From the IMG/VR virus record IMGVR_UViG_3300008108_005860: 64,000 nucleotides of DNA; one strand, 5' to 3'. The position numbers and the translations under genes are program-made. Shown here one piece after another: positions 13,324-32,402 of the stretch (the stretch's first letter is position 1; every line of letters begins with the position of its first letter). The stretch is from an uncultured virus (IMG/VR IMGVR_UViG_3300008108_005860) (taxonomy: Duplodnaviria > Heunggongvirae > Uroviricota > Caudoviricetes). The notes beneath the pieces are model-generated. The model worked only from the letters and a program-made list of their open reading frames with translations, was not told where the DNA came from and ran no database searches.

Positions 13324-13331
13324 AAGGCTCA

Positions 13332-13378
13332 GGGAGCGGGTGCCTGCTCGGACACAGGCTGTTACGAAACCCGCTCCC
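13332..13378 (+). other. GC-rich nested stem-loop after the AAA gene
   Basis: GGGAGCGGGT/ACCCGCTCCC 10-bp stem enclosing a GCCTG/CAGGC inner stem; no U-tract. Confidence 0.6.
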
Positions 13379-13388
13379 ACCTCTCGCT

Positions 13389-13727
13389 ATGATCATTTTC
13401 AAACTACAAGCCTTAGACCGTAGACATTCTGGAAATCATATCTACGGTTATCGTGCTGAGCGACTGCACCAGCGCAATCCCATAGAAGGTAGAGCCAGTA
13501 TGAAATGCTTTGCCGAAGCCAGGGCTTACCTTTGGCAGGCCTTTGGCTGGAGTGCCGATCTTGATGAAATGTTTGCGGTGTATGGCAACGATGACAAACC
13601 GGTATGGTGCTGGCGTACCAACCATCTATCGGGACATTACATCTACCTTAAATCGCCCAAAGAGATCAGTGTATTCTTGCTTAAATATGCAGAGCAGACC
13701 CAGGTTGACCCAAAAATCAAATTCTAA
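13389..13727 (+). CDS. hypothetical protein
   Basis: ORF between the AAA and vWA genes. Confidence 0.7.
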   Translation: MIIFKLQALDRRHSGNHIYGYRAERLHQRNPIEGRASMKCFAEARAYLWQAFGWSADLDEMFAVYGNDDKPVWCWRTNHLSGHYIYLKSPKEISVFLLKYAEQTQVDPKIKF

Positions 13728-13733
13728 TATAAT
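13705..13733 (+). promoter_or_regulatory. sigma70-type promoter
   Basis: TTGACC 13705-13710, 17 nt, TATAAT 13728-13733. Confidence 0.8.
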
Positions 13734-13756
13734 AATAGAAATACTTAGGAGTCTAT

Positions 13757-17232: not shown

Positions 17233-17482
17233 CCTTCATACCTATACTGTGTTTGAATGTTCAATAGGTGATGTAGAAGATCCTGATATCTATGCGGCAC
17301 AACCCATGTACGAATGGCAACAGACCGACGCAGGCAAGTGGGTCATGGAGAATGCTGCGGAAACTCCCAGTTATCACATCGGTGCCGATTACAACACCTA
17401 TGGTTATCGCTGTAGCATTCGTGCCAGTTTTGCAGAACGTCAAGCAGTAGAATACTGCTTACGATTCGTCAAAGAGAAATAG
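17216..17482 (+). CDS. hypothetical phage protein
   Basis: GDVEDPDIYAAQP...GKWVMENA; last + strand gene, 3' end overlaps the convergent gene. Confidence 0.75.
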   Translation: MSSSTDLHTYTVFECSIGDVEDPDIYAAQPMYEWQQTDAGKWVMENAAETPSYHIGADYNTYGYRCSIRASFAERQAVEYCLRFVKEK

Positions 17483-18046
17483 ATCCACCGGCACACATAG
17501 CCTTAGCGTTCCTGCATAAGGCATCACAAAATGGTACAAGAAACTGGGAAATATGTAAACATCGCCAGTTCGAGGCTGTATGCGAGTATAATCAAATTGT
17601 TTTTGTTTTTGTTTATTATCATAGCCTCGATTGGCGTTAGATCTAGGATCGCAGAATATCAACTGTCCTCCTTGGGTGGATTCTTCGGCCAACAGATAAA
17701 ACACACCACTGTAATGACTACCACTGTGATTGTGCAGGATCAAATGATAATTTCCTTGATTTCCAGTAAGCCATGATTTAAACTTATAGGTTTGGAAGTC
17801 TGTGATATGTTTGTCAATGGTATCTACAAGATACTGATCAAAAGCAGGATATACTTCTTGATCGATCCATTGATCAAGTTCAGGTAGATTGAGATCCAAG
17901 ATGTTCTCCTCATAAATTTCTTCGGTTGGCTTGGCAAAATCTACATTGACCATCAGCGCATCCACTACCTGCTGACGTATGTGATCATTCTTCATGGTTG
18001 TATACTGCACAGGTGTTGGATACAGTAGATTCATTCCTGGATTCAT
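17459..18046 (-). CDS. 2OG-Fe(II) oxygenase-like protein
   Basis: HNH...SGVFY...LIFCDPR...GDVYIFPSFLYHFV...R double-stranded beta-helix signature. Confidence 0.82.
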   Translation of the reverse strand: MNPGMNLLYPTPVQYTTMKNDHIRQQVVDALMVNVDFAKPTEEIYEENILDLNLPELDQWIDQEVYPAFDQYLVDTIDKHITDFQTYKFKSWLTGNQGNYHLILHNHSGSHYSGVFYLLAEESTQGGQLIFCDPRSNANRGYDNKQKQKQFDYTRIQPRTGDVYIFPSFLYHFVMPYAGTLRLCVPVDLFLFDES

Positions 18047-18483
18047 AGCATGAATTCTCTTTCAAAATAGTTTCTTATGTCGGGTATCATTCCTTGATCC
18101 ATGTTATTGGGCAAGGCCGCAATGATCTTGATGTAGGTTTCTTTGTCTTGACTGTAGGGAACAAAGTAAGGATCATTGCCGTACAGCAGATCAGGATCAT
18201 CTAGCACAGTTAAAAAATCTTCACCAAATTCTTGATTCAACCATCGAGCATATAAGACAGCAACTGCATAACTTTTACCAGGATATAACCATCCAACTTC
18301 CTGCTCAGTAAAATACTTCACAGCAGTTGACACAACATCAGTGACTATTTCAATGTCAAACTGATTTAGATCGTCACCGTGTTCTTTGGTAAGTCTGTGA
18401 TATACTTCCTGTCTTACTTTCCACTCTTTCATGATATCAAGTGTACTGGCGAGCATACCACTGTATGAGATGTTTGTATCCAT
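18043..18483 (-). CDS. hypothetical protein coupled to radical SAM gene
   Basis: overlaps both neighbours; YPGKSYAVA...LDDPDLLYGNDPYFVPY; exact start uncertain. Confidence 0.7.
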   Translation of the reverse strand: MDTNISYSGMLASTLDIMKEWKVRQEVYHRLTKEHGDDLNQFDIEIVTDVVSTAVKYFTEQEVGWLYPGKSYAVAVLYARWLNQEFGEDFLTVLDDPDLLYGNDPYFVPYSQDKETYIKIIAALPNNMDQGMIPDIRNYFEREFML

Positions 18484-19354
18484 TGCAACTCATGGATATA
18501 TCTCGCACTTCACGCAAGTGTTCGCTTAGACAGCGTCCGTGGAATTCGCAATCACGGCAGTATTCGTTCACACTAACACGTTGTTTTTCTCGTTCACACC
18601 ATTGTTGATATTCTTCAATGGAATCCATTTCTAAGAAATACTCGCGATCATTGATGTCAAATTCCAACACAGCAAATCTACCGCTGGGAGTAATATACAC
18701 GTGATCATCACTGTAACTGTGTCCTTGCCCGTCTAATACCTGTTGTATAAGGGCGGCGTTGACAAACTGGAATTTTTTTGGCGTGGCAGCGGTGAGCCAG
18801 CGTATCACATAGTTTTCAAAATCTTTGTCGGTTATCTGGAGATCATTGGCCTGATTGCGACTATAGGGTTTGATTTCTACTGAACGTAGATTAGGTATGA
18901 GATTGAACATATTGATCATGTAGTTGGGATCCAGTGTGATCAAGTGCGGACTGGCCAGCATGAGCACGCTGAAATCCGAAGAAATCATGGTCATGTTCTT
19001 GTAAACCAAATCATATTTTTCTCTGGCGCTGAAGTCGTAACTGACACTGAGAGAATAGTTAGGATCTTCGGTGATTTGGTTTACTGCGCTAAGGTTTGTT
19101 ATCATGTTGAGATTTTTGCAGTATCGTTTCAAAATCACAGTCATGTCTTCAAAGTACTGTTTAGGCAGCAGGGCCACTTCGCCGCCGTAGACATCAATCT
19201 GATCAATGATGCCATAATGTGCTACAACTTCTTGTAATCTAGACTCCAATTTATCAAGTTTGATTAATTTTTGACTAGACAACTGTCCTTCTGTTAGATA
19301 ACAAAATTTGCAACGGAAGTTACAATAATACCAAGGATTAAGGGATATGTTCAT
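18437..19354 (-). CDS. radical SAM protein with C-terminal Cys cluster
   Basis: CNFRCKFC, YGGE; C-terminal CRDCEFHGRCLSEH...SCNG; ATG 19354 follows TAAATA. Confidence 0.88.
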   Translation of the reverse strand: MNISLNPWYYCNFRCKFCYLTEGQLSSQKLIKLDKLESRLQEVVAHYGIIDQIDVYGGEVALLPKQYFEDMTVILKRYCKNLNMITNLSAVNQITEDPNYSLSVSYDFSAREKYDLVYKNMTMISSDFSVLMLASPHLITLDPNYMINMFNLIPNLRSVEIKPYSRNQANDLQITDKDFENYVIRWLTAATPKKFQFVNAALIQQVLDGQGHSYSDDHVYITPSGRFAVLEFDINDREYFLEMDSIEEYQQWCEREKQRVSVNEYCRDCEFHGRCLSEHLREVRDISMSCNGYKHLIQWYARQYT

Positions 19355-19438
19355 AGGTAAGATATTTAGCGACCGCTCGAGGCAGATCAAAGGTATTTGG
19401 GCAGCATAAGCCACTACCAATGATCACTGATATACTAA

Positions 19439-19537
19439 TCAATATATGTAAGGATCTTGTTTCCTGCTCTGTCTGATCTTGCGTCTATAACGCAATTCGT
19501 TAAGCAGCTTTTGGATAATACGCTTGATTTTTCTCAT
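19439..19537 (-). CDS. small basic peptide (32 aa; not in ORF track)
   Basis: MRKIKRIIQKLLNELRYRRKIRQSRKQDPYIY; overlaps the end of the SGNH-like gene and fills the gap. Confidence 0.55.
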   Translation of the reverse strand: MRKIKRIIQKLLNELRYRRKIRQSRKQDPYIY

Positions 19538-20309
19538 TGAGGTAATCTCTTACAAGTTTAAAAGCATCTGCGTGAGCCTCTTCTGTGAAATGTTCGTCTC
19601 GGCGGGCATAACCGTTGTCTCTGGCCCACTCTACGAAACCTTTCAATGGAGGATAAAAAAACCACGGATCTTGATCAATCATGTTAATCAAGCAATTCAC
19701 GCTGGGATCATCAAAAGTTTTACGGAAAAAAGAGTGAGCCGACGTAAACATATATGGAATGCTGTTTAGTTTAAGGTAGTTCTGTAAAAACACAATCTCT
19801 TTCACAGTGCAGTAATATTCATATACATCATCGCTACCAACATACCTATAGTAGTCTCTAAGAAACTTTATGATATCCTTGTCAAGGTGTGTAAATATTT
19901 TTTGCTTTGATTCATCTGGTCCAGGATAAAGATCCTTACTGTTAACACTGCGCCAAGGCCCGTGTGGCCCTAGAGCGTATCCTTCGGGATCTGTCTTTGC
20001 ATCATAAGGTTTACTCATTGGATCGATAGTAAATTTAAATTCTATGCGATTCAAAAAAGACCAGCTTACCACTACAAAAATATCTTGTGCCCGATTTTGC
20101 TCACAGGCCAAAATAGTTTTTCTAGCAATCGCAGAGTTGCTATTACCTGGATAAGCTGCACAAACATACTGGCGATTCAATGACTTACTAAGCAAAGCAG
20201 GCCACGTGTTCAGACTATAGCTGAAATTGTTACTGGGATTACAATCCAGTAGATCTAATCCATAGGTGAAACTATCGCCGCCAGCTATTAGTATTGGTTG
20301 ATTTGACAT
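19500..20309 (-). CDS. SGNH/GDSL-like protein
   Basis: GGDSFTYG block I, PGNSN, C-terminal DEHFTEEAH. Confidence 0.6.
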   Translation of the reverse strand: MSNQPILIAGGDSFTYGLDLLDCNPSNNFSYSLNTWPALLSKSLNRQYVCAAYPGNSNSAIARKTILACEQNRAQDIFVVVSWSFLNRIEFKFTIDPMSKPYDAKTDPEGYALGPHGPWRSVNSKDLYPGPDESKQKIFTHLDKDIIKFLRDYYRYVGSDDVYEYYCTVKEIVFLQNYLKLNSIPYMFTSAHSFFRKTFDDPSVNCLINMIDQDPWFFYPPLKGFVEWARDNGYARRDEHFTEEAHADAFKLVRDYLNEKNQAYYPKAA

Positions 20310-20346
20310 AAAAGATACTCGTAACCTGTATTTTTACTTAGTTTCA

Positions 20347-21420
20347 CTACGCTGTCTCATATTCTTTTACATATTCTGTTGGTTCCAAGTCCACACCATT
20401 GGCTTCAATGATGTCGGCAGCAAGAGTTTTCATTTTACTACAATGGCGTTCGACCAAATTGTACCGTTTGAGATCGGTTATGGTTTTGCGACAACCATTG
20501 CAGATATCAAACATAGGGCAACTATAACAACTCTGCTTGAGAGTCTGAAGATCGGGTTGATCTTTCAGTATCCTGATTATTTTTTTGCTATTCATCTCTT
20601 GCTCAAAATCTATAGCATATTCTTTGTCGTCGCCAAAGGCTCCGCAACTGTAGTAATCTCCGGATGGCTGTAGAGTCCTAATACCTGCATCACAATCTCT
20701 GTTTTGTGGACATATGGTTGCTTCACCGCGCAGTCGTTTCATCATGGTCTTGGTACTGTGTTCCCAAGGATATAATTCTTGTCGCCAGATTTCGAGATAT
20801 ATCTCGTAGATATCTGCTAGCACGAAAGGACGACCTTGCTGGCCCATGATGATGTTACGAAACTTCACAGGAGGTCCCGAACTAAAGGCATAGTTTAACT
20901 TGCACTCCACGTTCATCTTCTTGGCCAGTCTCACATTGTCGAGAGCACGATCTGCATTTTCTTCGGTTATTACTGTGATAAAGTCTGGCCTATATCCACA
21001 ATAGCGTAGCATGGCGTCGCTGCATTTCCAAAAGTCTTCTTCTGAAAATGGGGTAAGATCACCTTTGAGACGTCCTCCACCATATTGGAAGCTGGTGGTT
21101 ATGCCCATACGCTCATGATTGAATAGATCTACCCACTTTTGGGGATTCTTGTAAAATGGCCAAAGATTAGTGGTAAAACTAATAGAGGTATCATACTCAT
21201 GTAAGTCCAACCAGTCAATGATCTTCCAGTAGTATGCTGGCGACATCATGAGTGGATCGCCACCGTTGACTATGATTGTTTTGGTGTCAGGAAAACGTTC
21301 AAGAAATCTAAAAATTTGATCGTGCCCAAGTTCAGCACTTTTGTCGTCGGTGATGTTGGTACTGGAGCAAAACGTACATTTGAAATTGCAACTCTCAGTT
21401 GGTTTGATAATTAGATCCAT
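20347..21420 (-). CDS. radical SAM/SPASM-type protein
   Basis: IKPTESCNFKCTFC, NGGDP; CPQNRDC...YSCG...CYSCPMFDICNGC...HC auxiliary cluster. Confidence 0.9.
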   Translation of the reverse strand: MDLIIKPTESCNFKCTFCSSTNITDDKSAELGHDQIFRFLERFPDTKTIIVNGGDPLMMSPAYYWKIIDWLDLHEYDTSISFTTNLWPFYKNPQKWVDLFNHERMGITTSFQYGGGRLKGDLTPFSEEDFWKCSDAMLRYCGYRPDFITVITEENADRALDNVRLAKKMNVECKLNYAFSSGPPVKFRNIIMGQQGRPFVLADIYEIYLEIWRQELYPWEHSTKTMMKRLRGEATICPQNRDCDAGIRTLQPSGDYYSCGAFGDDKEYAIDFEQEMNSKKIIRILKDQPDLQTLKQSCYSCPMFDICNGCRKTITDLKRYNLVERHCSKMKTLAADIIEANGVDLEPTEYVKEYETA

Positions 21421-21426
21421 GATACC

Positions 21427-21514
21427 TCAATATTCTAAATTAAAAAAATAAGACGAAGTGACTCGAGAATTTTTTGAAACATCGGCTCTGTGCTTGAAAA
21501 TAGTCATTCAGCAT
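21427..21514 (-). pseudogene. probable relic of a deleted 2OG-Fe(II) oxygenase gene
   Basis: frame 21507-21427 gives IFKHRADVSKNSRVTSSYFFNLEY, echoing the C-terminus of the 21790-22326 oxygenase (FWHRADDTKIRRRVASFDF); out-of-frame start MLNDYF at 21514. Confidence 0.5.
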
Positions 21515-21803
21515 TTGGCTGTTCAAATCCATATTTGTTGATACATTCAGCAGCATACTCAGTGTCACCGATACTGTCGACGCCTTTGATTTGGCAGATC
21601 TGCCTATTGACTTCACGTATACGTTCTTTGACATATGCACCATAAGGTTCCATGTTGTTGATCATGCGCATATACATATCGTACAGTTCAGGATCGTGTT
21701 GGAAATCGTGTAGTTTAGTGATCCAGACATTGTACAACTCTGCGCAAAGATCTCTTTCTTTGCTATATTCTAGTTTGAGTTTTAACAGTTCATTGAGTTC
21801 CAT
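21504..21803 (-). CDS. hypothetical helical protein (99 aa)
   Basis: overlaps the upstream oxygenase stop. Confidence 0.7.
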   Translation of the reverse strand: MELNELLKLKLEYSKERDLCAELYNVWITKLHDFQHDPELYDMYMRMINNMEPYGAYVKERIREVNRQICQIKGVDSIGDTEYAAECINKYGFEQPNAE

Positions 21804-22326
21804 TTTTCAATCCTACACAAAAATCAAAACTGGCCACTCGTCGACGTATCTTTGTATCATCGGCTCTGTGCCAAAATCCGCGAAGATTATTGACCATGAA
21901 AACATCACCTGCCCGGGGCTGGAATGTGGCAGTCTGTTCCTGGCCTTGTAACACTCCCCATTTGAAGTTTATGCTGCCACCTGTTTCAGCATGGGTGTCA
22001 TCAAAATAATACAAAAAGAAAATGTCATAGTTTTCAAACATATCTGTGTGCCAACCTTGATTGTCACGATCCACGCCATCCCAAACTATGAACTTGTTGT
22101 ATTCAGCCGCGGGCCATTCGGGATCTATGTACTTGGTTTTCAAATACAAAGCCAAGGTTTCTAATCTCTTGGCCAGTTCGGCACTGACATCTTGCTTGCC
22201 GTTATCTCTAACACGTTCTTCCACATTCAACAGTTTGAATTCATCGATGTTGATCAATGCCAAGGCGTCGGGCTCACTGAGTTGTACAAATCCTTTGCTA
22301 TAGATATCTTTAATGTTGTAATACAT
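21790..22326 (-). CDS. 2OG-Fe(II) oxygenase
   Basis: WHTD...FLYY...GG...PRAGDVFMVNN...WHRA...RR (HxD...H triad plus 2OG Arg). Confidence 0.82.
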   Translation of the reverse strand: MYYNIKDIYSKGFVQLSEPDALALINIDEFKLLNVEERVRDNGKQDVSAELAKRLETLALYLKTKYIDPEWPAAEYNKFIVWDGVDRDNQGWHTDMFENYDIFFLYYFDDTHAETGGSINFKWGVLQGQEQTATFQPRAGDVFMVNNLRGFWHRADDTKIRRRVASFDFCVGLKNGTQ

Positions 22327-24040
22327 GATTCATGACTCCGTTCATTATCAAAGGTTTGTTGGCGTTCAACATTTCCTCTATCACAAGCACCCTAAACCTA
22401 TTGCCTAATTTCCTTATGCTACGCGGTTCAGTATCGGGATTGAAAATATCTGCTATCATATCATGTATGGGGCCGTAATCATCCAACTGTTGGATAACCT
22501 TGTAGGCTATTCTAGCACACTCCTTGGGTGTTGTATAGTCTTTTAGTGGATCAAAAAAATGTTCTAACACATAAGGTCCTGCTTGATTCATAAACCACAT
22601 TTCTAACATTTCTTCCCTGGTAAAACTATAGCAACTCCTGATAGTTTTAAAGTAAGTGCGTTTGTTTTTGTACAGGCTGTTCCAATTGTCTACACCGTCT
22701 TCGTCGATGATGTCGCTGTAGACTTCTACAGTTTCGATCTTGTATTTAATTTTATAAACATCGCTGTTGAGTTCGCTATCGGGCAGAAACATATAGTCAT
22801 GTCTGAAACTGGACCAGCCGCTGTTATTGCCCACTGTGGATCGCGCTTGGAAGTTATACATGATCTCAAATTCTGTGTAGAAATCATCAATGGTTGACCC
22901 GGGCATGGCCAGGATCAATTCCACGGCAGGAGTAGGAAAGCCCTGTTCTCTACAGCGTTGATTGATGTGTCTGCTGAGTTCTATTTTATCTTCTAAACTA
23001 AGATCCACACGATTGGCCACTTTCATGGCTTCGTCGCTGACGCTTTGTATACTGACCGTAGGCACCACACTGATAAACTCGGTCTCTCCCCACATATCAG
23101 TACCCCCTTCGCTGGCACTGTGCCTTTCTGGACCACGTCCCACAACATCAAACCAAGCATCTACTAATCGTTTTCTTCTAGTGAGGTCACGACTTTTTAC
23201 TGTGCTGATGTCTGTGAGATTGAATTTGTTTTGCCATGCAAACCGAAACAGTTCTATATCACGTTGCTCGAACACACCAAAGTTTGCATCGGTGAGATAA
23301 GCATCGCGGAATCCCGCGGCTTTGAGCGCCAGGATGTCTCGCTTGACCACTGCTTCTGATTTTTTGTATATTTTAGTGCCAATGCCACCGCCCCATTCAC
23401 AGAACACACAACTGTATGGACAACCCCTAGTGGACTCTAGCACTATAAAAGGCTCTATGCGTTGGGACCTGGCATATTCTACTATTTCACTCAGATAAGG
23501 CAAATGGTCTTCGTAGACGCTGTAGTCATAGTCTATGAGATATGAACGTTCTCGTTCGCTGTTCAATTCCCAACTGATGTCTGCTTTGCGTGCCCGACCT
23601 TGGTTGTCAAAATAACTGTTGATAAAGTCTTCAATAAATGTTTCGCCGGGCTTGGTAGGGCGGCAAATATAATCATAGTAGGTTCTGGTGGCCAAAAACT
23701 CTGGTTCGTTGGTGCCAATGTGCGGACCGCCCAGGATAGTTATCTTGCCTTGTGCTTGGGCTATCTTGGCTATTTCATCACAGATGGTATAGTTCCAAGC
23801 ATAACTGCTAAACATGATCGCATCTGCTTGGGCAATTTCTTGATAGACTTCTTTATAAGTCTCATATCGATCGAACTTGTAAGGAGCCGGCAACCACTTG
23901 ACACGATCAGCATACTTGCCATTGCGCTGATAATGACTTTGACACAGCAGGTAAGTGACGTTGTTGGCCAGGCTCCAATCCGCATGGGGTGGATTTACAA
24001 AAGCCAGGGTTAGTGAATTATGTTGTTTTTGCATCTGCAT
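22310..24040 (-). CDS. cobalamin-binding radical SAM protein (class B methyltransferase-like)
   Basis: N-terminal B12 domain (FVNPP...FSSYAWN...ILGGPH), ESTRGCPYSCVFCEWG, LTDANFG; start 24040 or 24034. Confidence 0.88.
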   Translation of the reverse strand: MQMQKQHNSLTLAFVNPPHADWSLANNVTYLLCQSHYQRNGKYADRVKWLPAPYKFDRYETYKEVYQEIAQADAIMFSSYAWNYTICDEIAKIAQAQGKITILGGPHIGTNEPEFLATRTYYDYICRPTKPGETFIEDFINSYFDNQGRARKADISWELNSERERSYLIDYDYSVYEDHLPYLSEIVEYARSQRIEPFIVLESTRGCPYSCVFCEWGGGIGTKIYKKSEAVVKRDILALKAAGFRDAYLTDANFGVFEQRDIELFRFAWQNKFNLTDISTVKSRDLTRRKRLVDAWFDVVGRGPERHSASEGGTDMWGETEFISVVPTVSIQSVSDEAMKVANRVDLSLEDKIELSRHINQRCREQGFPTPAVELILAMPGSTIDDFYTEFEIMYNFQARSTVGNNSGWSSFRHDYMFLPDSELNSDVYKIKYKIETVEVYSDIIDEDGVDNWNSLYKNKRTYFKTIRSCYSFTREEMLEMWFMNQAGPYVLEHFFDPLKDYTTPKECARIAYKVIQQLDDYGPIHDMIADIFNPDTEPRSIRKLGNRFRVLVIEEMLNANKPLIMNGVMNHVLQH

Positions 24041-25037
24041 ATCTAAACGCTTCTGCAAATACACAACCATCTACATCTCTTATGAGATGTTTGTATTCGT
24101 TCTTGATAAAGCAAGTGAAACTACAACGTGAATAAAACTCACAACTGAGACAATCTTTTTCTTCCAAGAATATCTGTATGATCTTGCTAGAACCAAGTTC
24201 TTGGCTGCGGGGATCTTTTAACAGCACAGTGCCGCTGCAGCCCTTGGGGGATGATCCATCTGTCATGATAGTGTGGCTGCTGCCTCTAGTACAAGACATT
24301 TTCTTTTGTTGATTTTGATTGAGAAAGTACGCGATGTTGTTGCAGCGAGGATACTTGTCAATCATGAATCGATAGTATTCTAATAACTGGCTTTCCCGAG
24401 GCATGAGTGCTGGATTAAAATTCTTTCCAGGCAAAAGTTGATCCCAATCTGTTTCAAATGTTTGATACAGATAATCATAATAGGCATCACCTGCTATAAT
24501 TTTCTCGATGTTTTGTCGGGTGATCACAGTTGAAATCAAATGTACATAGGGTTGGAACTTTTCAATGTTGCGTTTGAATAGTGCCAGTTCCTGTGCGTTG
24601 AATCTACCAGCCGGATCGTAACTTACATTCATGGTCAATTGATTGTTGCGACAAAAGTCCAAGACTGCGTCAATTTGTTCATACACCAGATTGGTAACAA
24701 AAAGAAAATCTACAGTTTTTCCGCTGGCCACATTGTGTTTTACAGTGTCAATAAATTCCTGATACACCTCAATGAATCCTTGTTTGATCCAATGATCCTG
24801 GAACAGTTCTCCGCCCATGATATGTATTACAAACTGTTGCTTGGGACTGGTATTGATGTAATCTACTACCAATTGAGACTTGCCAATGATACTATCTCTG
24901 TTGGCGCCAGTGGTATCATCATGATTCTGAGGACAAAAAACACACTTCATATTGCAGTGCTCAAAGAACAGCACCACGACTTCTACATAGTCGATGATTT
25001 TGTTCTCAATGATTTTATAAAAGTCTAGATCACTCAT
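24018..25037 (-). CDS. radical SAM protein with C-terminal Cys cluster
   Basis: FEHCNMKCVFC, MGGELF; C-terminal CLSCEFYSRCSFTC...C. Confidence 0.88.
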   Translation of the reverse strand: MSDLDFYKIIENKIIDYVEVVVLFFEHCNMKCVFCPQNHDDTTGANRDSIIGKSQLVVDYINTSPKQQFVIHIMGGELFQDHWIKQGFIEVYQEFIDTVKHNVASGKTVDFLFVTNLVYEQIDAVLDFCRNNQLTMNVSYDPAGRFNAQELALFKRNIEKFQPYVHLISTVITRQNIEKIIAGDAYYDYLYQTFETDWDQLLPGKNFNPALMPRESQLLEYYRFMIDKYPRCNNIAYFLNQNQQKKMSCTRGSSHTIMTDGSSPKGCSGTVLLKDPRSQELGSSKIIQIFLEEKDCLSCEFYSRCSFTCFIKNEYKHLIRDVDGCVFAEAFRYADAKTT

Positions 25038-25094
25038 GGCAATATTGGTCCAAAATACTTAGCCAATATTATCAGTGGTAATGGCAATAAAAGG

Positions 25095-26207
25095 TCAGGT
25101 GCAACCGTTGATGACAAATGGTCTCAGTAACTCACGGTTGTTTTTTCTAGCGTCGTTTATGTAATTAAACAATGTAGCATTGATTTTATGTGACTCGCTA
25201 GACGCAATAAATGGCAAAACATCCATGACACGATCTCGATACTGACTCCATTGTGCCGGATTATTGATGTGTTCTATGCCGGGGAAGAATCCAATGGGTA
25301 CTTCGTTCAAAGGCAAGCCTTTGAGATCTCTAAAAACTTTGATCACTGTTTTTGACAATTTGGCAATTTCAGATTCAGATACTCTGCGCCAGTTAGCATC
25401 AAAACTAACTGTAGAAACATCTCTTGGGAAAAACCTATCGTCAAACAACAAGCGTGTGGATTCGGCTTGCTGCAAAATTCCAATCATTTCCAAAATTGGA
25501 CGATCCGAAAGATTCAAGACGCTTTTGGTTTTTTCTGACGTCAGCGTGTCAACTATGTGCTCTCTGGCTTCCAACGCACTCAAGTAGGCGTGCTTGATAC
25601 AAAAGCCTTTGATCTGTTCACTGAATATGTCTTCGCATTGACCATTGTAACTGTATGTTGCCAATACAAATTCTATGCTTAGATCGGCTCTTTTTTCAGC
25701 AAAAAAACTATAGAAATCAACAGGGTTGGTTTGTCCCTTGAAAAATTCAGCAGATACTTCGGCTTCTGTAATGGCAGCTTTATTTTTAAGGCGTGCATGA
25801 TTTTGAACAGGACTAGAGAATGTAACATTACTACTTAACAGGCTTTGTCTAACAGTGTAGAAAGCCAAGATCTGATAGATGTCCTTGACCGTGGCCAAAG
25901 GCAATGCAGCACGGAAAAAATTAGTTCCTATTTTGACAAAACTGTCTCGATCTGCGTACACTGTCACTGGCGCATTTAACTCGTCTTGTTTTGATCCAAG
26001 GAAATTCAAGAAACTCAGATAGTCTGGATAGGTTTTGCCGGCGCCAATCACACCTTCCACGCTTTCATTGTAATCTAGCAGTTGGCCAACAGAGGCAAAT
26101 TCACCTCCCATTGGGTGACCAAAATCCTGACTCAATACCACACGATGTTGTGCGGTATCCAGCGTTTCATCTAAAGCTAGATATACTCTTTTAAAGAGAT
26201 GTAGCAT
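25095..26207 (-). CDS. hypothetical protein (370 aa) in radical SAM cluster
   Basis: long ORF coupled to the upstream gene; no motif recognised. Confidence 0.8.
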   Translation of the reverse strand: MLHLFKRVYLALDETLDTAQHRVVLSQDFGHPMGGEFASVGQLLDYNESVEGVIGAGKTYPDYLSFLNFLGSKQDELNAPVTVYADRDSFVKIGTNFFRAALPLATVKDIYQILAFYTVRQSLLSSNVTFSSPVQNHARLKNKAAITEAEVSAEFFKGQTNPVDFYSFFAEKRADLSIEFVLATYSYNGQCEDIFSEQIKGFCIKHAYLSALEAREHIVDTLTSEKTKSVLNLSDRPILEMIGILQQAESTRLLFDDRFFPRDVSTVSFDANWRRVSESEIAKLSKTVIKVFRDLKGLPLNEVPIGFFPGIEHINNPAQWSQYRDRVMDVLPFIASSESHKINATLFNYINDARKNNRELLRPFVINGCT

Positions 26208-26922
26208 CTTGTTGTTCCTTAAGTTCTTGTGTGGCCTGACTCAACAATTCTTGCCACTGTTTACTATTTATTTTTTCTTCTAATATGCCCCAGGTGATCA
26301 AAAACATGGGATTGTTGTTATTGGCCCAGAACGAGTAAAGATTACGCCCTTTGAACATATTTTCACTAAAATAGCGGCTGTAGTATCGCAGATTAGATGC
26401 GTCCAAGATCTGATAAAAATAGAAAAATTCTTCGTTTTTCAATAGACTTATCCAATTGATTCCTTCAATGGAGTCTGTGTCATCTTCCGGATAATTTTTG
26501 ACTTCTTGTTTGGCTAGTTCGTCATTGATAGCATAGGTGTTGAACAGAACCAGGCTATCCAATTTCTGTACCCAGCATTTGACCAATTCTATATTTTCCT
26601 GTATGAAGTTGGTAAAATATCCTGGCTGTATCAGGCCCTTGTATTCAAACAGCACGCCCATGGCTGCACGTTCCAGCGTGGGAATATTGACCAGCGTGGT
26701 GCTGGCAAAGTAGGTTTGCAATAGTTTGGCATGATCGGGATCGTTAAAATCTTCAATGTCTATATCGCAATTGAGATCCAAATTACCAAGATAAGTTAGG
26801 AGTTTTTGTTCCTGCAGTTTGGAATTTTTATAGTCTATTAGATATCTAGTGGATTTGTCACTGAAATAAATTTTCAAATTTTCCAATGATATGGGTGCGG
26901 TGGTAGTGATTACATTTGACAT
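26191..26922 (-). CDS. hypothetical protein (243 aa) in radical SAM cluster
   Basis: ATG 26922 is one nt after the stop of the CH-tag gene; no motif recognised. Confidence 0.8.
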   Translation of the reverse strand: MSNVITTTAPISLENLKIYFSDKSTRYLIDYKNSKLQEQKLLTYLGNLDLNCDIDIEDFNDPDHAKLLQTYFASTTLVNIPTLERAAMGVLFEYKGLIQPGYFTNFIQENIELVKCWVQKLDSLVLFNTYAINDELAKQEVKNYPEDDTDSIEGINWISLLKNEEFFYFYQILDASNLRYYSRYFSENMFKGRNLYSFWANNNNPMFLITWGILEEKINSKQWQELLSQATQELKEQQDATSL

Positions 26923-26923
26923 T

Positions 26924-27667
26924 TTATCTTCTTCCTCTTGAATTGTGGCAGCTGGAATGGCACTGGGCATGACAGGTGCTGTATGACATTGATATAGTGC
27001 CAGCAGCAGTGTATGCCGAGGACCAATTGCTCATCAATGCAGCCCAATATGTGTTGAATGCCACTGCTGCCGCACCTCCCAAGGTTCCATTTGTGCTGGC
27101 ACTAATCACACGATCAGTGGCGAAATTTACATTAGTGCCGGGATTGGTTATGTTACCTGCGGATAATGCATAGCCAGAAGTTACCAAGGCCTTGCCTGAA
27201 TCTGTGTAAGTGCCTGCAGGTGCTATATCACCTGTGACTACGGTTATGGCCTGTACACGTCTATAGATAAGGTATCTTTGTAGTTCGCCGTAAAAAATCT
27301 GGCTAAATCCTGAGAAGTTGCCTGCAGATATGGCCTGTGACGCACTGGCTGGATATGTGAGACTTACATTGGCAGTGGCAGATATGATCTGCCCACCAAC
27401 ATTGGCAATGTTGCTGTCTGTGAGCACATTGGCCACTTGATTTGATGTAGGCGCAAAAATACCTAAACCGGCATAGTAGGCATTGGCTGCAGCTCGATAA
27501 GCTGCAGGCACAGTTCTGGTAGGGTAACTACCGGTGTAGAATAACACATTGTTGTTGGGACTGTTGGCATTGGTACTGGCCAAATAGTCATTGAGAAAAC
27601 TCTGGATTATACTTTGCGCATTGCCCGGATTTCGTGATCTTACTAAATCACCGGTGGAGATGGTCAT
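26924..27667 (-). CDS. virion-like protein with C-terminal CHAQCHSSCHNSRGRR (putative modification substrate B)
   Basis: Ala/Gly/Ser/Thr/Asn-rich body; the only Cys and His residues are in the last 16 aa. Confidence 0.8.
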   Translation of the reverse strand: MTISTGDLVRSRNPGNAQSIIQSFLNDYLASTNANSPNNNVLFYTGSYPTRTVPAAYRAAANAYYAGLGIFAPTSNQVANVLTDSNIANVGGQIISATANVSLTYPASASQAISAGNFSGFSQIFYGELQRYLIYRRVQAITVVTGDIAPAGTYTDSGKALVTSGYALSAGNITNPGTNVNFATDRVISASTNGTLGGAAAVAFNTYWAALMSNWSSAYTAAGTISMSYSTCHAQCHSSCHNSRGRR

Positions 27668-27669
27668 GC

Positions 27670-28437
27670 TTATCTCCTGCCGCGACTGTTATGGCAGCTG
27701 GAGTGGCACTGAGCGTGACAAACTGTTATACTGACATTAGTGATGGGTCTATTATTGAAAGATTTTTTAAGACTGTTGAAATAGTTATTGATACCCCAGA
27801 CCTCTCTATTGGTGGGATTGGCAGTGTTTTCATTTCCTGCATAGGTGGCATTGGCAATGCTACCATCAAATGTATCTGTGTCAGTGTGTCCGCGCGGAGT
27901 GGTAGGATTTACAAAGCTGGAGGAAAATTGTGCAGTTGAAAAACTTGCTTTGAAAGGTCCGTACACAGATGGTGGTGGTGCAATATCTCCAGTGGTGATT
28001 TTTGTAGCTCTACACCAGTTCACAGTTAAAAAATTCCTGGCCGATTGATACAGCACCGCAGTTGAACTGGGCAGTCCGTTGCCCGAATAGTGGCTGGCAA
28101 AAATAACATAATCTACACTGGGATCACTTGGATATGTTTTTTTAAAATCTCCGGGCACAGCATTGGCGGTGGCCCAGGCATTGCCTGTTGAAGAACCTGA
28201 TCTTCCATTGCCGCCAAATACAGCAATCCATTGTGTATCACCTGTGGGATATTTTGCGGGCAATGTGCCCGAGGCAGGCCCCCAAGCAATGCCATCAGCA
28301 AAATTCACTGTGCTGTTGGCCACATAAGCTACACTGGTGCCGTTGCCCTGTGGGCCAGTGGCGCTGACGGCATCATAGCCAAAAGCGCTGATGAGATTAG
28401 AAGCATTGATAATGTATCCGGACTGTAATTGAGCCAT
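27670..28437 (-). CDS. virion-like protein with C-terminal CHAQCHSSCHNSRGRR (putative modification substrate A)
   Basis: same composition and identical C-terminal 16-mer; shares internal TGDIAP with its neighbour; preceded by TATAAATA. Confidence 0.8.
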   Translation of the reverse strand: MAQLQSGYIINASNLISAFGYDAVSATGPQGNGTSVAYVANSTVNFADGIAWGPASGTLPAKYPTGDTQWIAVFGGNGRSGSSTGNAWATANAVPGDFKKTYPSDPSVDYVIFASHYSGNGLPSSTAVLYQSARNFLTVNWCRATKITTGDIAPPPSVYGPFKASFSTAQFSSSFVNPTTPRGHTDTDTFDGSIANATYAGNENTANPTNREVWGINNYFNSLKKSFNNRPITNVSITVCHAQCHSSCHNSRGRR

Positions 28438-28442
28438 AATAC

Positions 28443-28450
28443 TATTTATA
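28443..28450 (-). promoter_or_regulatory. T4-type late promoter consensus TATAAATA
   Basis: exact TATAAATA on the - strand 5 nt upstream of ATG 28437; related TAARTA motifs precede several other genes. Confidence 0.65.
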
Positions 28451-28456
28451 CAAAAT

Positions 28457-29530
28457 TTAAACTGGGACTATTTTAAACATTTTGGCGGGAATTTTGTAGG
28501 AATCTTGGGCTGTACCATACTTTAGTTCTCGCATGAGGCTCTTGGGCGCACCGCAAACGTCGCCTTGCCAGCTCAATTGATGACAATCTGATCCGCATTT
28601 GTCAAATACATCACAGTCATAACACAGGGTATTCCTGTGCGATTCGCAGGCTATGTTGTTTATGCGCTGCGGGTGGGTCAGGACATCTTGTATGCCCATG
28701 GAAATATGTCCAAAATTTTCTTCGGGCGCAGCATTGGGACAGCCACCTATTGTTCCATCCGCATTGATGGTAAAAAGTTTTTGTTCGCAATCTCTGCAGA
28801 AAGTTCCTGCTCCAGTAATGTTACGTTCGAACTTGCTGTAGATATTTTCCATGAACTCATTGGCAAACCACGATCTTGCATCGTATTGCTGTATCTGACG
28901 GTGCATTTTTAAAAACCATTGATCCTGATCTAGATTTCGGGGGAAAATATCTGGATGCTGTCTAGCATTGCCGTTGTTGGTCAAGCGTTCTAGATCCATT
29001 TCTTGAACACCTAAATCTCGCACCCAGCGCAGCAGTTCAATGGGTTCTATATTGATAGTATCCCGTGTGACGCTGATAAACAGTTTTATGGACACTCCTA
29101 GGCTCAGCAACCTTTCAACGTTTCTGCGCCACAATGATTCTTGTCTAACATTGGCAAATCTAATAGCCGGATCCCAACTGGTGCCTATGCGTCGACCCAA
29201 TGGACCCAAGATGAAATCTTCAATGTCTTGATTTAGTTTAAAGGTTAGATTACTGGTGCAGCCAAATGAAGCAACATCAAAAGTATCACGCAATTGATCA
29301 TATACACGGATCATATCTTGCACTGGGGCCAGAAATGGTTCGCCACCGTGGAATTCATAGTGCATGGTGTGCCCTGCGCCCACGTGCTGGTGGAAACGCT
29401 GGAAAAAATCAATCACGTGATCTGGATTCCAGAATATCTTACGCCCTTGGGTACCAGATGTAAAACAATGCCGGCAATTTAAATTACAGGTTTCAGTGGT
29501 CTTGAGATAACTTAGATAATTCATTGACAA
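28457..29530 (-). CDS. radical SAM/SPASM protein (peptide-maturase-like)
   Basis: LKTTETCNLNCRHC, FHGGEPFL; FCRDC...INADGTIGGCPN...CYDCDVFDKCGSDC...C SPASM-like domain. Confidence 0.9.
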   Translation of the reverse strand: MSMNYLSYLKTTETCNLNCRHCFTSGTQGRKIFWNPDHVIDFFQRFHQHVGAGHTMHYEFHGGEPFLAPVQDMIRVYDQLRDTFDVASFGCTSNLTFKLNQDIEDFILGPLGRRIGTSWDPAIRFANVRQESLWRRNVERLLSLGVSIKLFISVTRDTINIEPIELLRWVRDLGVQEMDLERLTNNGNARQHPDIFPRNLDQDQWFLKMHRQIQQYDARSWFANEFMENIYSKFERNITGAGTFCRDCEQKLFTINADGTIGGCPNAAPEENFGHISMGIQDVLTHPQRINNIACESHRNTLCYDCDVFDKCGSDCHQLSWQGDVCGAPKSLMRELKYGTAQDSYKIPAKMFKIVPV

Positions 29531-29994
29531 TCTATCAAGTAAGATTCTAAGCCAAAACTCAGCATGAGACTGTCTTCCTGGTTGACAGCTTCATGTGGTA
29601 CATTGGCTGGAATCAACAGTGTATCACCTGCTGTGAGTGTGCGCCATTCTCCGTCCACAATCATATTTTTGGTGCCTTCAATCACTTCTAAAAATACTGG
29701 CATGGGATCTGAGTGTGAGCCAAAACTCTGCGAACCCGGAAAGGCTCTGTAAGCGTGACAAGTCACTGGCCCAACATGATCATACATGATTTTCAAACCA
29801 GCACATTTTATAGCCAACTCGCGAGAGTAGCGTTCTAGGCCTTCGAGTTTGATGGCATGACCATTGTAAAGTTTTGATAATTCAGCGTGATTGTGAACAA
29901 GATAGTGTCCACCATTTTTTATCACGCTGATCAAATTATGCCTATAAACAAACTCTCGGCCAATAAAGGCTTTGAATTCGTTTATGCTATTCAT
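29521..29994 (-). CDS. JmjC/cupin-type oxygenase (ROXA/YcfD-like)
   Basis: CHAY...SFGSHSD...VIEGTK...LTAGDTLLIPANVPHEA: HxD...H triad and conserved Lys. Confidence 0.75.
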   Translation of the reverse strand: MNSINEFKAFIGREFVYRHNLISVIKNGGHYLVHNHAELSKLYNGHAIKLEGLERYSRELAIKCAGLKIMYDHVGPVTCHAYRAFPGSQSFGSHSDPMPVFLEVIEGTKNMIVDGEWRTLTAGDTLLIPANVPHEAVNQEDSLMLSFGLESYLIDCQ

Positions 29995-29996
29995 CG

Positions 29997-32402
29997 TTAC
30001 AGTATAACAGCCTCAACCATTGCTTCAGTACCAGGTTCTGCATAAGCATTATGTAGTGCTATGGCAATCGGTACATCATTATTTCTGGCACATACACCAG
30101 GAACGTCACTGGGACCCAGTTTATCACCTTTATGGACCACGCCCGTGAATCTAACTGGCACGCGGCCGCGCAAGGCCACAGGAACACCGCCCACCAATGA
30201 CATATTCATTAGATATGCAGGATTGGTCGATATCACTCCCAGGGGATGATCTTGATTGGTACACTCAGTAATTTCGGCATCTCCGCCTACGGTTACCAAG
30301 GTTCCAGCAACGTATTCTCTATCTGCTAGATAAAGTTCGGCCAAGTCAGCATAACGTGCATATGTAGCGATACCAATAAAATTGTTGGCTGTGATATTAC
30401 CGCCACTGTCTCTCAGTGCAGTGGTATTTGCTGTGCCTAGTATGGTAGCAGGATATACTGTGCTACTAAAATATGTGCCCACAGCGTTGCCTACCGCACC
30501 ATTGGCGTGTAACATTCCACCAATGGCTCCACGATATAGTCCAGTGTGATAACCACCTGTGCCTGTGATATAAAGATTGCTTACCGCAGCACCGTTGAAG
30601 CTGCTGTTAGAAACGGCACCATCGGCAAAGATATTACCAGTGGCGCGTAGATCTCCTAGGCTGCCACCAACGTTGGGATAATCGCTGGTTATATTCAAAC
30701 TGCGATTGAGTACCCAGCGCTGGGCATCGTAGCCCGGACTGCCCGAACCCGAGGCTTGCACCACTCCTGTGAACTTCAATTGGTTACTTGCACCAACGTT
30801 GGCTGCATTGCCTAAAAGTATGCCAGCGCCAGTTAATCCAGTAATGATATTGGCAGTGACTGTGTTGTCCGACAATGTGATATCTTTGTCAGCAGTGGTA
30901 ATGGTTTCTACGTTGGTTTCAACTGTGTTGCCCAGCACATAAAGATTACCCTGGATGCGCACATCTCTGTAAAAATCATACAGCACATTGGCTGTGAGAT
31001 TGGTAAATGTCAGGATGTCGCCTACTCCACCGGGAACTGTGCTGGTGCCCCAGGTATGGATGATACCCACATTGCCGTTACCAAGATTGTTTGGAGGACG
31101 TCCAATGTATACAGCATTGTTGAAACTACCGGTGCCATTGGCACCCACGATTCGGATATTGCCTTCGCCTGTGGTAGTGTTACCGTCACCTACATAGATT
31201 CCGCCGTCGGATGGTATGGCTATGTCTGTGATGTTGGCTGCAGGCAAGTCGCCTAGCAAAGCGCCAGACAAGTTACCAAAAAATGTTTTGGCATATACCG
31301 CATTCAATGCTGTGCCAGTATTGGGATTCTGTCCCAGATTGACATTGCTGTATCCAGTGAATCCGTTGCCAAAACTTACAATGATGTCGCCACGTACAGC
31401 CAAGGCAGCGTTGCCAATAGCATTGTTAGATGCATCAAAGGCTGCTTCTTGTATGCCCAGGCCTTTGACATAGGGTTGATATTTGCTGCTGGGCTGTATC
31501 ACACCATATATCTGTGTGTTGGTATTGCCCATGGTATTAAATATGGCAGAATTTCCAGCCACAGATGCGAGATAACTGGCTCCATAGGCTGTGATGCCTT
31601 GACTTGTGGTAATGCCGTTGCCAGCTATCTGTGTAAATGTTCCAGGATTAGCACTGTTGCCTACAGCAATATAATTTAACAATCCACCGTTATATGCGCC
31701 CAACTGCGTAATATTAGCCTGCACTCCATTAAGATTGCCATAGATGCCTTGTCCGCGTACATCCAGGAAGGATGTGCTGTTGTTGGCACCATTGCTGAAT
31801 CTACCAACGTACATACTGTCAGTGATATCTGCAGTGTTACCATATAAATTGTTGACATCGATGCGGCCGTCGCCGGTGTTGGTTGTGAAGTTGCCTACGT
31901 TGGCATTGATCACAGCCACATTTACTGTGTCTTGACGTGTAAGCGGGCCAATGGCTTGCCAGCCCGGATTTCCAAATGTGGTTTTTGTAGTGTCTCCACT
32001 GTACACTATCAACTGCGCAATGTTGCTTGCGCTGTCAACATACATCCATTGATCACCCTTGGCAGGTGCGCTGGGCGCATTGGCCGAGCGTGCTGGCATG
32101 ACTCCTTGCCAGGTAATGGCATTTCCAGTATATGTTGCTCCGTTGGGTATGTTGCCCTGTGTGGCGATTTTTAACTGTGTGTTGGTTAGATCATACCAAA
32201 GTTGTCCTGTCAATGCGTTGGTGGGACGATTGTTGGCTGTGGCTGCACCTGATTCCAGTAAGCGTATAAAATCCTGATCTACGAACTGTCCATAGTTGGC
32301 AAAGTCGCGACCAATCAGCGTCATGGTTGACGTTTGGTTAATGGTTCCATCCGCTATGTTAGCGAATATTGCACCTCGGGTTAGCGTAACTGAATAAGGC
32401 AT
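29997..32402 (-). CDS. tail fibre/spike with C-terminal intramolecular-chaperone (autoprocessing) domain
   Basis: N-terminal LIGR..YG...GQLWYD attachment module; G/N/T-rich beta repeats; C-terminal YADLAE...GVISTNPAYLMN...VALRGRVPV. Confidence 0.82.
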   Translation of the reverse strand: MPYSVTLTRGAIFANIADGTINQTSTMTLIGRDFANYGQFVDQDFIRLLESGAATANNRPTNALTGQLWYDLTNTQLKIATQGNIPNGATYTGNAITWQGVMPARSANAPSAPAKGDQWMYVDSASNIAQLIVYSGDTTKTTFGNPGWQAIGPLTRQDTVNVAVINANVGNFTTNTGDGRIDVNNLYGNTADITDSMYVGRFSNGANNSTSFLDVRGQGIYGNLNGVQANITQLGAYNGGLLNYIAVGNSANPGTFTQIAGNGITTSQGITAYGASYLASVAGNSAIFNTMGNTNTQIYGVIQPSSKYQPYVKGLGIQEAAFDASNNAIGNAALAVRGDIIVSFGNGFTGYSNVNLGQNPNTGTALNAVYAKTFFGNLSGALLGDLPAANITDIAIPSDGGIYVGDGNTTTGEGNIRIVGANGTGSFNNAVYIGRPPNNLGNGNVGIIHTWGTSTVPGGVGDILTFTNLTANVLYDFYRDVRIQGNLYVLGNTVETNVETITTADKDITLSDNTVTANIITGLTGAGILLGNAANVGASNQLKFTGVVQASGSGSPGYDAQRWVLNRSLNITSDYPNVGGSLGDLRATGNIFADGAVSNSSFNGAAVSNLYITGTGGYHTGLYRGAIGGMLHANGAVGNAVGTYFSSTVYPATILGTANTTALRDSGGNITANNFIGIATYARYADLAELYLADREYVAGTLVTVGGDAEITECTNQDHPLGVISTNPAYLMNMSLVGGVPVALRGRVPVRFTGVVHKGDKLGPSDVPGVCARNNDVPIAIALHNAYAEPGTEAMVEAVIL

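Follow-up and report, generated by a model that had tools for sequence, protein, structure and literature searches.

What do five radical S-adenosylmethionine (rSAM) enzymes and three oxygenases act on when they are encoded directly after a phage tail fibre? The window examined here, a stretch of 64,000 nucleotides (nt) from an uncultured virus (IMG/VR record IMGVR_UViG_3300008108_005860), is judged by its gene content to be part of a large T4-like phage, with baseplate wedge, hub and structural genes on the minus strand (PHROGs) and thyX on the plus strand (NCBIfam). Immediately following the gene for a fibre protein of 801 amino acids (aa), 15 open reading frames (ORFs), all on the minus strand at 17459-29994, encode these eight enzymes together with two proteins that carry the same 16-residue tail. 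The system, which we call the kit, is real, widespread and uncharacterised. We propose that it is probably a protein-maturation kit, by which the tail is cross-linked and oxidised while the product stays on the particle, likely at the fibre tip, where it would help to bind prey or to lock the tip. What is shown is the gene content, the co-occurrence, the link to fibre genes, and that one homolog is present in virions and migrates anomalously on a gel; every chemical step, the docking site and the function are inferred.

Both tagged ORFs end in CHAQCHSSCHNSRGRR, a tail of the (Cys-His-x-Ser)3-RGRR type. Its DNA pattern has two exact matches in the window, compared with a mean of 0.37 in 100 shuffles with up to two mismatches allowed. 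Between the two copies, nine of the 16 codons of the tag are different, all silently, and the bodies of the two proteins share 51 identities over 231 and 239 aa (about 22%), so the tail is held by selection at the protein level. Among 172 distinct tags the three Cys-His pairs are invariant, and the residue two positions after each His, a position left free by the search pattern, is Ser in 151, 138 and 149 tags; its substitutes are N, A, Q, D, K and R (mostly N, A, Q and D) and never Gly. The first unit of the window tag itself reads His-Ala-Gln, and some tags are lengthened by whole CHxS units. At locus L162:3907-4266 (minus strand, on a 4.3-kb contig), a tagged protein has many extra CHxx repeats ahead of its final tail.

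The bodies are variable; the whole proteins range from 125 to 430 aa, with M1 and R89 the sole residues conserved at 90% or more outside the tail. A body profile built without the tail matches tagged protein 1 of the window (E 2e-6), RSL2 ORF068 (6e-13) and gp170 of phage Atu_ph07 (3e-10). It does not match the body of tagged protein 2 (E 43, scored as the identical copy in L052), but does match the copy of that protein in the close relative L074 (E 1e-4). With the tail included, the profile reaches 902 clusters at 50% identity (E up to 0.001), and among the best 150 of these, as found with a profile that includes the tail, 136 end in the strict motif and 146 contain CHxxCHxxC. A structure model was built on L009, a central family member rather than the window copy, and shows helices around a long beta hairpin with a predicted local distance difference test (pLDDT) score of 85, the tail being of low confidence (pLDDT 73 and 54 in its last two blocks). 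Foldseek returned no match of this model to solved folds at E 0.001 (best VIA Z 3.9), which says neither novelty nor difference. Its BFVD matches were Atu_ph07 gp170, two uncharacterised proteins of 173-178 aa and three uncharacterised Myoviridae proteins; in the ESM Atlas tagged protein 1 gave only leads below 0.9, and the family profile matched PilE weakly (E 0.19).

To assess how regularly the tail and the enzymes travel together, a degenerate DNA pattern for the tail was searched, matching at least 121 viral stretches, of which 80 were taken with flanks. Three loci holding the window's own proteins or duplicates (L052, L053, L075) and three with no full tag ORF (L048, L057, L060) were left out, leaving 74 viral loci, 46 of them well covered (at least 3 kb upstream and at least 9 kb downstream; near-duplicates kept). 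All 46 carry at least one of the core rSAM genes A to D, and 42 carry three or four. Starting from the small core protein U146 instead, among the best 80 of 284 loci the tag was found in 36 of the 40 that reach the core gene for U259; two of the other four have the tag just outside the fetched stretch and two lie at a contig edge. Tag and enzymes thus co-occur in both directions, a check that the first-pass annotation had proposed for its own reading. The pair of tagged proteins that it described is present in the window, but carrying two such genes is a minority state (14 of the 74 loci).

Searching with U259 or U146 by tblastn recovered 15 of 50,697 phage records, namely RSL2/RSF1/FLC relatives, Atu_ph07, DT01 and Phosso. 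The jumbo phages Atu_ph07, RSL2, DT01 and Phosso are carriers in culture and share the gene order cupin, rSAM A, tag, U259, rSAM B, C, D, with the variant in RSL2 that U370 stands ahead of U259. Kits hold four to eight rSAM genes, and in phages they usually come after a fibre with a self-cleaving chaperone; as first noted for the window, the conserved core, in phage and bacterial loci, includes no peptidase or exporter. A set of divergent kits (L015, L023, L033 and L169, also L020 and L050) has five to eight rSAM genes and no detected oxygenase, and these are possibly oxygen-independent versions. At L202:271-1197 (plus strand), a Gly-rich gene of 308 aa, which in our view is reminiscent of polyglycine adhesin domains, lies between rSAM A and a short tagged gene of 140 aa. 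Our literature search, which left most subscription journals outside it, found no description of the kit; PMC8066314 only lists kit annotations, and the word 'radical' does not occur in PMC11242549.

The fibre gene and the 15 ORFs of the cluster, together with one promoter match, are as follows, with counts referring to the 46 well-covered viral loci.

29997-32402, minus strand: fibre protein, 801 aa, the proposed docking partner, with a C-terminal G2-type intramolecular chaperone (Pfam Peptidase_G2 E 1.5e-5, 24.9 bits against a cut-off of 25; PHROG 19602, tail fibre, E 6e-8); homolog in 34 loci.
29521-29994, minus strand: JmjC/cupin oxygenase, core (Pfam JmjC_2 and Cupin_2 above cut-off); 36 loci.
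28457-29530, minus strand: rSAM/SPASM enzyme A, core, with CxxxCxxC (best NCBIfam match PapB, E 2e-12, far below cut-off); 41 loci.
28443-28450, minus strand: match TATAAATA to a putative T4-like late promoter, just before the first tagged gene; sole perfect copy in the window.
27670-28437, minus strand: tagged protein 2, 255 aa, tail codons at 27673-27720 (PHROG 35144, E 4e-7).
26924-27667, minus strand: tagged protein 1, 247 aa, tail codons at 26927-26974 (its tail-less body matches the family profile as given above).
26191-26922, minus strand: U259, core, usually directly after the tag gene, a candidate scaffold or recognition factor (PHROG 20767); 44 loci.
25095-26207, minus strand: U370, near-core, no family match; at least 33 loci.
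24018-25037, minus strand: rSAM/SPASM enzyme B, core (best NCBIfam match HxsB, E 2e-7, far below cut-off); 46 loci.
22310-24070, minus strand: B12-dependent rSAM enzyme, probable C-methyltransferase, accessory (KedN5 family E 3e-22, below cut-off; TokK E 1e-14); 14 loci.
21790-22326, minus strand: Fe/2-oxoglutarate (2OG) oxygenase, 178 aa, accessory (Pfam 2OG-FeII_Oxy_3, E 1e-4); family in 22 loci.
21504-21803, minus strand: ORF of 99 aa; 5 loci, all 5 also with the B12 enzyme.
20347-21420, minus strand: rSAM/SPASM enzyme C, core (TIGR04085 SPASM, 28.2 bits against a cut-off of 27; best equivalog DynA, E 3e-13, below cut-off); 42 loci.
19500-20309, minus strand: weakly SGNH-like ORF, probable passenger (DUF6071 E 1e-4; GDSL_2 E 0.04); 0 loci.
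18437-19420, minus strand: rSAM enzyme D, core, with a reduced C-terminal Cys cluster; 45 loci.
18043-18483, minus strand: U146, core, with conserved PAKSY and GNDPYF blocks (PHROG 20737); 39 loci.
17459-18046, minus strand: Fe/2OG oxygenase, TIGR02466-like, 195 aa, accessory but common (Pfam 2OG-FeII_Oxy_5 above cut-off); family in 30 loci.

This content and order agree with the earlier description of the cluster. At nine of the 14 internal junctions the genes overlap or are separated by no more than 2 nt, most genes having been described as translationally coupled; the four SPASM-type enzymes and the B12 enzyme all keep CxxxCxxC; and two of the three oxygenases, the cupin and the 195-aa ORF, pass Pfam cut-offs, the match of the 178-aa ORF being weaker. 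The ORF described as an SGNH-like protein is there, but its match is weak and no other well-covered locus has it, so that it is probably a passenger. The B12 enzyme, the 99-aa ORF and the 2OG oxygenases are optional parts, and methylation and 2OG hydroxylation would then be optional add-ons outside the core. In the fibre protein, an ADLAE motif 117 aa from the end places the chaperone at about 29997-30350 by motif alignment. The promoter-like TATAAATA lies close to where 11 of 84 viral tag genes begin, versus 3 of 224 rSAM A-D genes; scans for sigma-70 promoters and terminators were at chance level, and the best share for RNA runs was 0.07. Elsewhere in the window, a 6033-aa ORF (33196-51297, minus strand) separates the gene for the baseplate wedge from those for fibres, and Atu_ph07 and Phosso have very long genes for a 'virion structural protein' in the equivalent place; a MoxR-like AAA ATPase with a vWA/metallopeptidase-like partner (12232-15034, plus strand) was named from motifs by eye.

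None of the five rSAM enzymes reaches a curated NCBIfam equivalog cut-off, and enzyme C alone passes the SPASM domain model. The rSAM/SPASM hallmarks, CxxxCxxC followed by C-terminal auxiliary-cluster Cys residues, are nevertheless found in enzymes A-C, and D retains part of the Cys set. Enzyme A combines CxxxCxxC with seven Cys residues of the SPASM region that are invariant across 77 homologs, and its second-best match in the Protein Data Bank (PDB) is the entry for the triceptide enzyme ChlB (E 4e-9). The cupin and 178-aa oxygenase families keep invariant His-x-Asp...His triads (H94, D96 and H134 across 47 cupin homologs; H93, D95 and H153, with R162 also invariant, in the oxygenase). The cupin profile first finds quercetin dioxygenases and other cupins in the PDB (E 7e-10), and then the histidyl hydroxylase MINA53 (E 4e-5). 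For the tagged proteins, U259, U370 and U146, no family in NCBIfam or Pfam scores above its cut-off, and in PHROGs the tagged proteins, U259 and U146 match solely groups of unknown function. U259 is modelled confidently (pLDDT 92); its fold search gave no clear PDB match, which speaks neither for novelty nor for difference, and no usable match was found in the ESM Atlas. Profile searches with U370 and U146 against the PDB returned nothing below E 0.18.

Evidence that a tagged protein reaches the particle comes from Atu_ph07, whose homolog gp170 is listed in purified virions with 8 peptides and 35% coverage (Table S5, PMC6102473). Its mass of 31.89 kDa equals that of the tagged ORF of this phage, with body homology at the E-value given above. 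As gp144-169 and gp171-175 are absent from the same table, no kit enzyme is listed there (PMC6102473). For gp170, these entries agree with the suggestion that tagged proteins are particle proteins, for which virion proteomics had been named as a check. On the denaturing gel, gp170 peaks in band 1 at the top, alongside proteins of 127 and 139 kDa, as do only 3 of the 43 proteins of 25-40 kDa in the table by hand count, and the neighbouring fibre protein, gp176 (66 kDa), has its peak in band 4 together with proteins of 50-58 kDa (PMC6102473). The 52.5 kDa predicted for gp176 after chaperone cleavage fits band 4. For RSL2/RSF1 no virion table was found in the literature search, which left supplements outside it; PMC5468394 concerns RP31. 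That publication also annotates, in the jumbo phages RP12 and RP31, a further rSAM cluster that has an MgoB-like gene (PMC5468394).

The pattern of substitutions in the tail may point to a particular chemistry. In triceptides the residues reported two positions after the aromatic residue are Ser, Asn, Asp, Ala and Arg (PMC11002830). The substitutes found in the His-x-Ser units overlap this set, and the tail matches the aromatic-X-X rule of triceptides; all three positions of the 172 tags read His-x-[S/N/A/Q/D/K/R], a triad whose third residue bears a C-beta. In the minviopeptin pathway, MicB forms a His-Ala-Ser cyclophane and MicC, an alpha-ketoglutarate (alphaKG) enzyme, cleaves at Gly to leave an amide (PMC12912966). 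The kit resembles such systems (minviopeptin, PMC12912966; HaaB/YhhB, PMC11002830) in its aromatic-x-Ser/Asn/Ala/Asp triads, three per substrate, its SPASM rSAM enzymes and the alphaKG oxygenase in the cluster. However, triceptides are short, released and cyclised by one rSAM enzyme, whereas the kit substrate would be a folded protein of 125-430 aa with invariant Cys, and all kit enzymes score below 27 bits against the 3-CyFE families XyeB, GrrM, FxsB, YhhB and AmcB (cut-offs 310-450). The maturases of ranthipeptides and CXXX repeats (PapB, NF047865; TIGR04115; CteB) offer a second likeness, with Cys at every fourth residue and PapB as the weak top match of rSAM A. PapB acts on a CX3D motif, which the tags lack; rSAM A reaches 46.8 bits against a cut-off of 340 for PapB, the best score against the SCIFF and TIGR04115 maturases is 25 against 350, and no precursor model matches the tags.

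We envisage the kit as a maturation pathway running late in infection, when the phage would make a small folded protein (here as two paralogs) whose last 16 residues are the substrate. Four core rSAM/SPASM enzymes, aided by U259, U370 and U146, would cross-link the three Cys-His-x-Ser units, the most likely bonds being C-C cyclophanes between His(i) and Ser(i+2) and/or thioethers of Cys, the latter also possible given that Cys is invariant. The JmjC cupin may hydroxylate His or Arg, and the optional B12 enzyme and 2OG oxygenases might add hydroxyls and a methyl group; cleavage at the Gly of RGRR is another possible role for them. Rather than being released, the product would stay on the particle, most likely on the neighbouring trimeric fibre tip once the chaperone has been cut off, where a rigid tail rich in His, Cys and Arg could help to grip or attack the host envelope, or could staple subunits. 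The T-even pair gp37-gp38 is an example of a fibre-tip adhesin on a chaperone-matured trimer. With this pair, phi29 gp12 and the MAT fibres of Bdellovibrio, the kit shares a small separate protein beside a trimeric fibre with a self-cleaving chaperone, but its tagged protein has no fold match to solved adhesins.

Several ideas on the tail were tried and set aside. That RGRR is an artefact of the Shine-Dalgarno site of the next gene is unlikely, since CGN codons encode the three Arg in 49, 49 and 56 of 161 cases. An amidation idea, in which the Gly of RGRR would require the 2OG enzyme, found no association (40/56 vs 8/13, p 0.52). Binding of haem c through CxxxCH was considered and set aside, no export signal being evident by eye. 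The B12 enzyme does go with this Gly (23/56 vs 0/13, p 0.003, as one of six tests and with kinship ignored); new loci gave 8/17 vs 0/2, with one counter-example (L248/L272), and we regard this link as a lead only.

The kit is also found in predatory bacteria. Searching 185,579 genomes with the tail pattern gave 62 matches, at 40 of which an ORF ends in the motif; one is spurious, and 27 of the 39 others are titled as Bdellovibrionota taxa (hand count; two from one genome), several kits lying amid housekeeping genes in contigs 1-2.8 Mb long. A quick tree of rSAM C places 20 Bdellovibrionota rows on one side of a branch with a Shimodaira-Hasegawa-like approximate likelihood ratio test (SH-aLRT) value of 94, from which we claim no direction of transfer. 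Matches titled Marinovum, Rickettsiales, Rhodobacteraceae, archaeon and Flavobacteriaceae (L137, L138, L161, L187 and L176) are probably mis-binned contigs, since the first four nest among viral rows in this tree and the last among Bdellovibrionota. Of 300 genomes sampled from the phylum, 9 carry U146, as does the centre genome G002. The first-pass proposal of RiPP (ribosomally synthesised and post-translationally modified peptide) chemistry on a phage particle is partly supported, gp170 being a virion protein, and is incomplete, because the same kit is chromosomal in predatory Bdellovibrionota beside fibre genes.

Three genes recur beside the bacterial kits, encoding a protein with a pilin-like N-terminus and an S74 chaperone, a protein of about 115 aa with a start that looks twin-arginine-like by eye (Tat-like), and a stub of about 200 aa. 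At loci L132, L140, L144, L147, L153, L165, L172 and L274, up to three proteins per locus combine an N-terminus like that of type IV pilins with an S74 chaperone at the C-terminus, apparently an undescribed type of pilus-anchored fibre distinct from MAT fibres. Predatory bacteria share fibre parts with phages, as in the Bdellovibrio MAT fibres, which begin with a signal peptide and a conserved beta domain, in contrast to the pilin-like start of the kit-linked fibres (PMC10769870); the main text of that paper does not contain the word 'radical'. The stub aligns in register with the G2 chaperone of the phage fibre at the cleavage motif (hhalign E 8e-4 over 106 columns, compared with E 0.56-0.86 for three controls). 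Its best PDB match, weak at E 0.22, is to a site of the same type in the phi29 pre-neck appendage, and it has no Pfam match. The stub lies inside the fetched DNA in 14 tag loci, and elsewhere in the genome in 5 of 5 whose loci were without it. These features suggest that Bdellovibrionota may apply the same kit to a pilus-linked fibre tip.

Among 301 sampled genomes, 14 carry the stub, including 9 of the 10 with U146, an overlap inflated by kinship. In the other five, the stub has next to it an rSAM kit of another type, with a Cys-tailed protein, so that all 14 have an rSAM kit. In this sister kit (L275-L279; G064, G101, G200, G249, G279), the stub and Tat-like genes stand beside at least four rSAM-like genes and a protein of 169-187 aa with Cys-rich ends and a C-terminal ...CHxxCGCHY, which no precursor model matches. 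Homology of this protein to the tagged protein was not established (E 0.013), and the five genomes may be one lineage because flanking genes are shared. One sister-kit rSAM enzyme is 47-49% identical to enzymes of the Campylobacter phage CP220 group, where the homolog has no fibre genes next to it.

In RiPPs the conserved part of a precursor is often the handle, and the invariant tail could accordingly be a recognition handle (follower peptide), with the enzymes modifying the variable body or the neighbouring fibre and the tail perhaps removed later. The number of accessory enzymes varies without a change in the tag, and the basic RxRR end may resemble a processing signal. However, fixed His and Cys with Ser, Asn, Ala or Asp at i+2 form a pattern expected of a substrate, the body has few conserved residues, and some tags grow by whole CHxS units; we consider this explanation unlikely.

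A different fate for the tail, compatible with our preferred location at the fibre tip, is that it becomes a protein-derived metal site or cofactor (Cu, Zn or Fe, with cross-linked Cys-His ligands), making the tip a small enzyme or a metal clamp. Cys-His thioethers occur in copper proteins, the tail offers three invariant Cys-His pairs, and four to eight rSAM genes per kit seem many for three simple cross-links. Nevertheless, the tail is modelled at low confidence and no fold match points to an enzyme, and we hold this to be rather improbable.

The closest known system appears to be HXS, an antiphage system of HxsA-D (TIGR03976-03979) with a DNA-binding effector, in which rSAM enzymes mature a folded His-x-Ser-repeat protein that remains a protein and small accessory proteins are needed (PMC13128918). 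The window kit, with three His-x-Ser repeats per tail, does not seem to be a member on sequence grounds, because its best scores are 30.4 against 370 for HxsB (TIGR03978) and 28.4 against 267.9 for HxsC (TIGR03977), and no kit protein matches HxsD (TIGR03976) or HxsA, with its signal peptide and peptidoglycan-binding domain, in NCBIfam or Pfam at E 0.1. Unlike in HXS, the kit repeats are C-terminal, each led by Cys and closed by RxRR, with four core rSAM enzymes and oxygenases, a virion-associated product, and genes beside fibre genes in phages and predatory bacteria. An HXS-like entry blocker, acting in superinfection exclusion in phages and as a periplasmic antiphage system in bacteria, would suit the use of rSAM enzymes on basic His-x-Ser repeats and the patchy distribution in Bdellovibrionota, but the tagged proteins begin with a soluble helix and have no signal peptide evident by eye, gp170 is found in virions, the neighbours are fibre genes and no kit protein matches the HxsA or HxsD models, making such a role very unlikely.

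Little credence can be given to a conventional RiPP, in which the body serves as a long leader from which a protease, of host or phage, frees the 16-mer as a diffusible antibiotic or signal. The layout with a C-terminal core fits, and rSAM/SPASM, B12 and 2OG enzymes are typical RiPP tailoring enzymes, but the kit lacks a conserved peptidase or transporter, and the body folds well in the L009 model and is abundant in virions. That the enzymes make a small molecule or modify DNA, the tagged gene being a bystander, is hardly credible: phage 2OG oxygenases can modify bases and the best NCBIfam match of rSAM D is viperin (E 2e-10, far below cut-off), yet the tag co-occurs with the enzymes in both directions despite rearranged gene orders, in bacteria as well, and the enzymes have SPASM domains in a core free of nucleotide-pathway genes.

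Maturation of the tail on a fibre tip, our preferred reading, also has observations weighing against it. No modification of the tail has been observed to date, and every rSAM enzyme scores far below all curated maturase cut-offs. The virion evidence comes from one phage, Atu_ph07, through a published table without peptide positions. The Atu_ph07 particles were purified with polyethylene glycol (PEG) only and the loading buffer as described lists no reductant (PMC6102473), so that band 1 could reflect disulphides or an oligomer stable in sodium dodecyl sulphate (SDS). In RSL2, DT01 and 12 of the 46 loci, no homolog of the fibre was detected close to the kit. Accessory enzymes range from none to at least five alongside a nearly invariant tag, and some enzymes may therefore act elsewhere. 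In the bacteria, the homology of stub and chaperone is weak (hhalign probability 24%), and the tag of G152 departs from the motif. Genome G147 (L280) has U146, degenerate rSAM-like genes, several 2OG oxygenases and three pilins, and neither the tag pattern nor the stub was found in it; it may be an incomplete genome or a further variant.

More tentatively, and rather less probably than the kit reading itself, it is possible that large phages and predatory Bdellovibrionota share 'chemically armed' fibre tips. There, a short chaperone-matured trimer, belonging to a tail fibre in the phages and to a fibre linked to a type IV pilus in the bacteria, would bear a small protein, and four to eight rSAM enzymes would rebuild its Cys/His tail into a cross-linked, possibly metal-binding or stapling device to seize Gram-negative prey, with at least two interchangeable kits (a CHxS type and a Cys-rich type) on the same bacterial stub. 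Should tail maturation prove true, the tagged protein would be, as far as our literature search reaches, the first known virion protein matured by a dedicated RiPP-type radical pathway. Cultured carriers with laboratory hosts exist in Atu_ph07 and Phosso, and for enzyme discovery the kit is a source of four SPASM families that are unclassified and of at least two proteins that have no clear fold match. Prey recognition by large phages is also linked in a concrete way to that by predatory bacteria.

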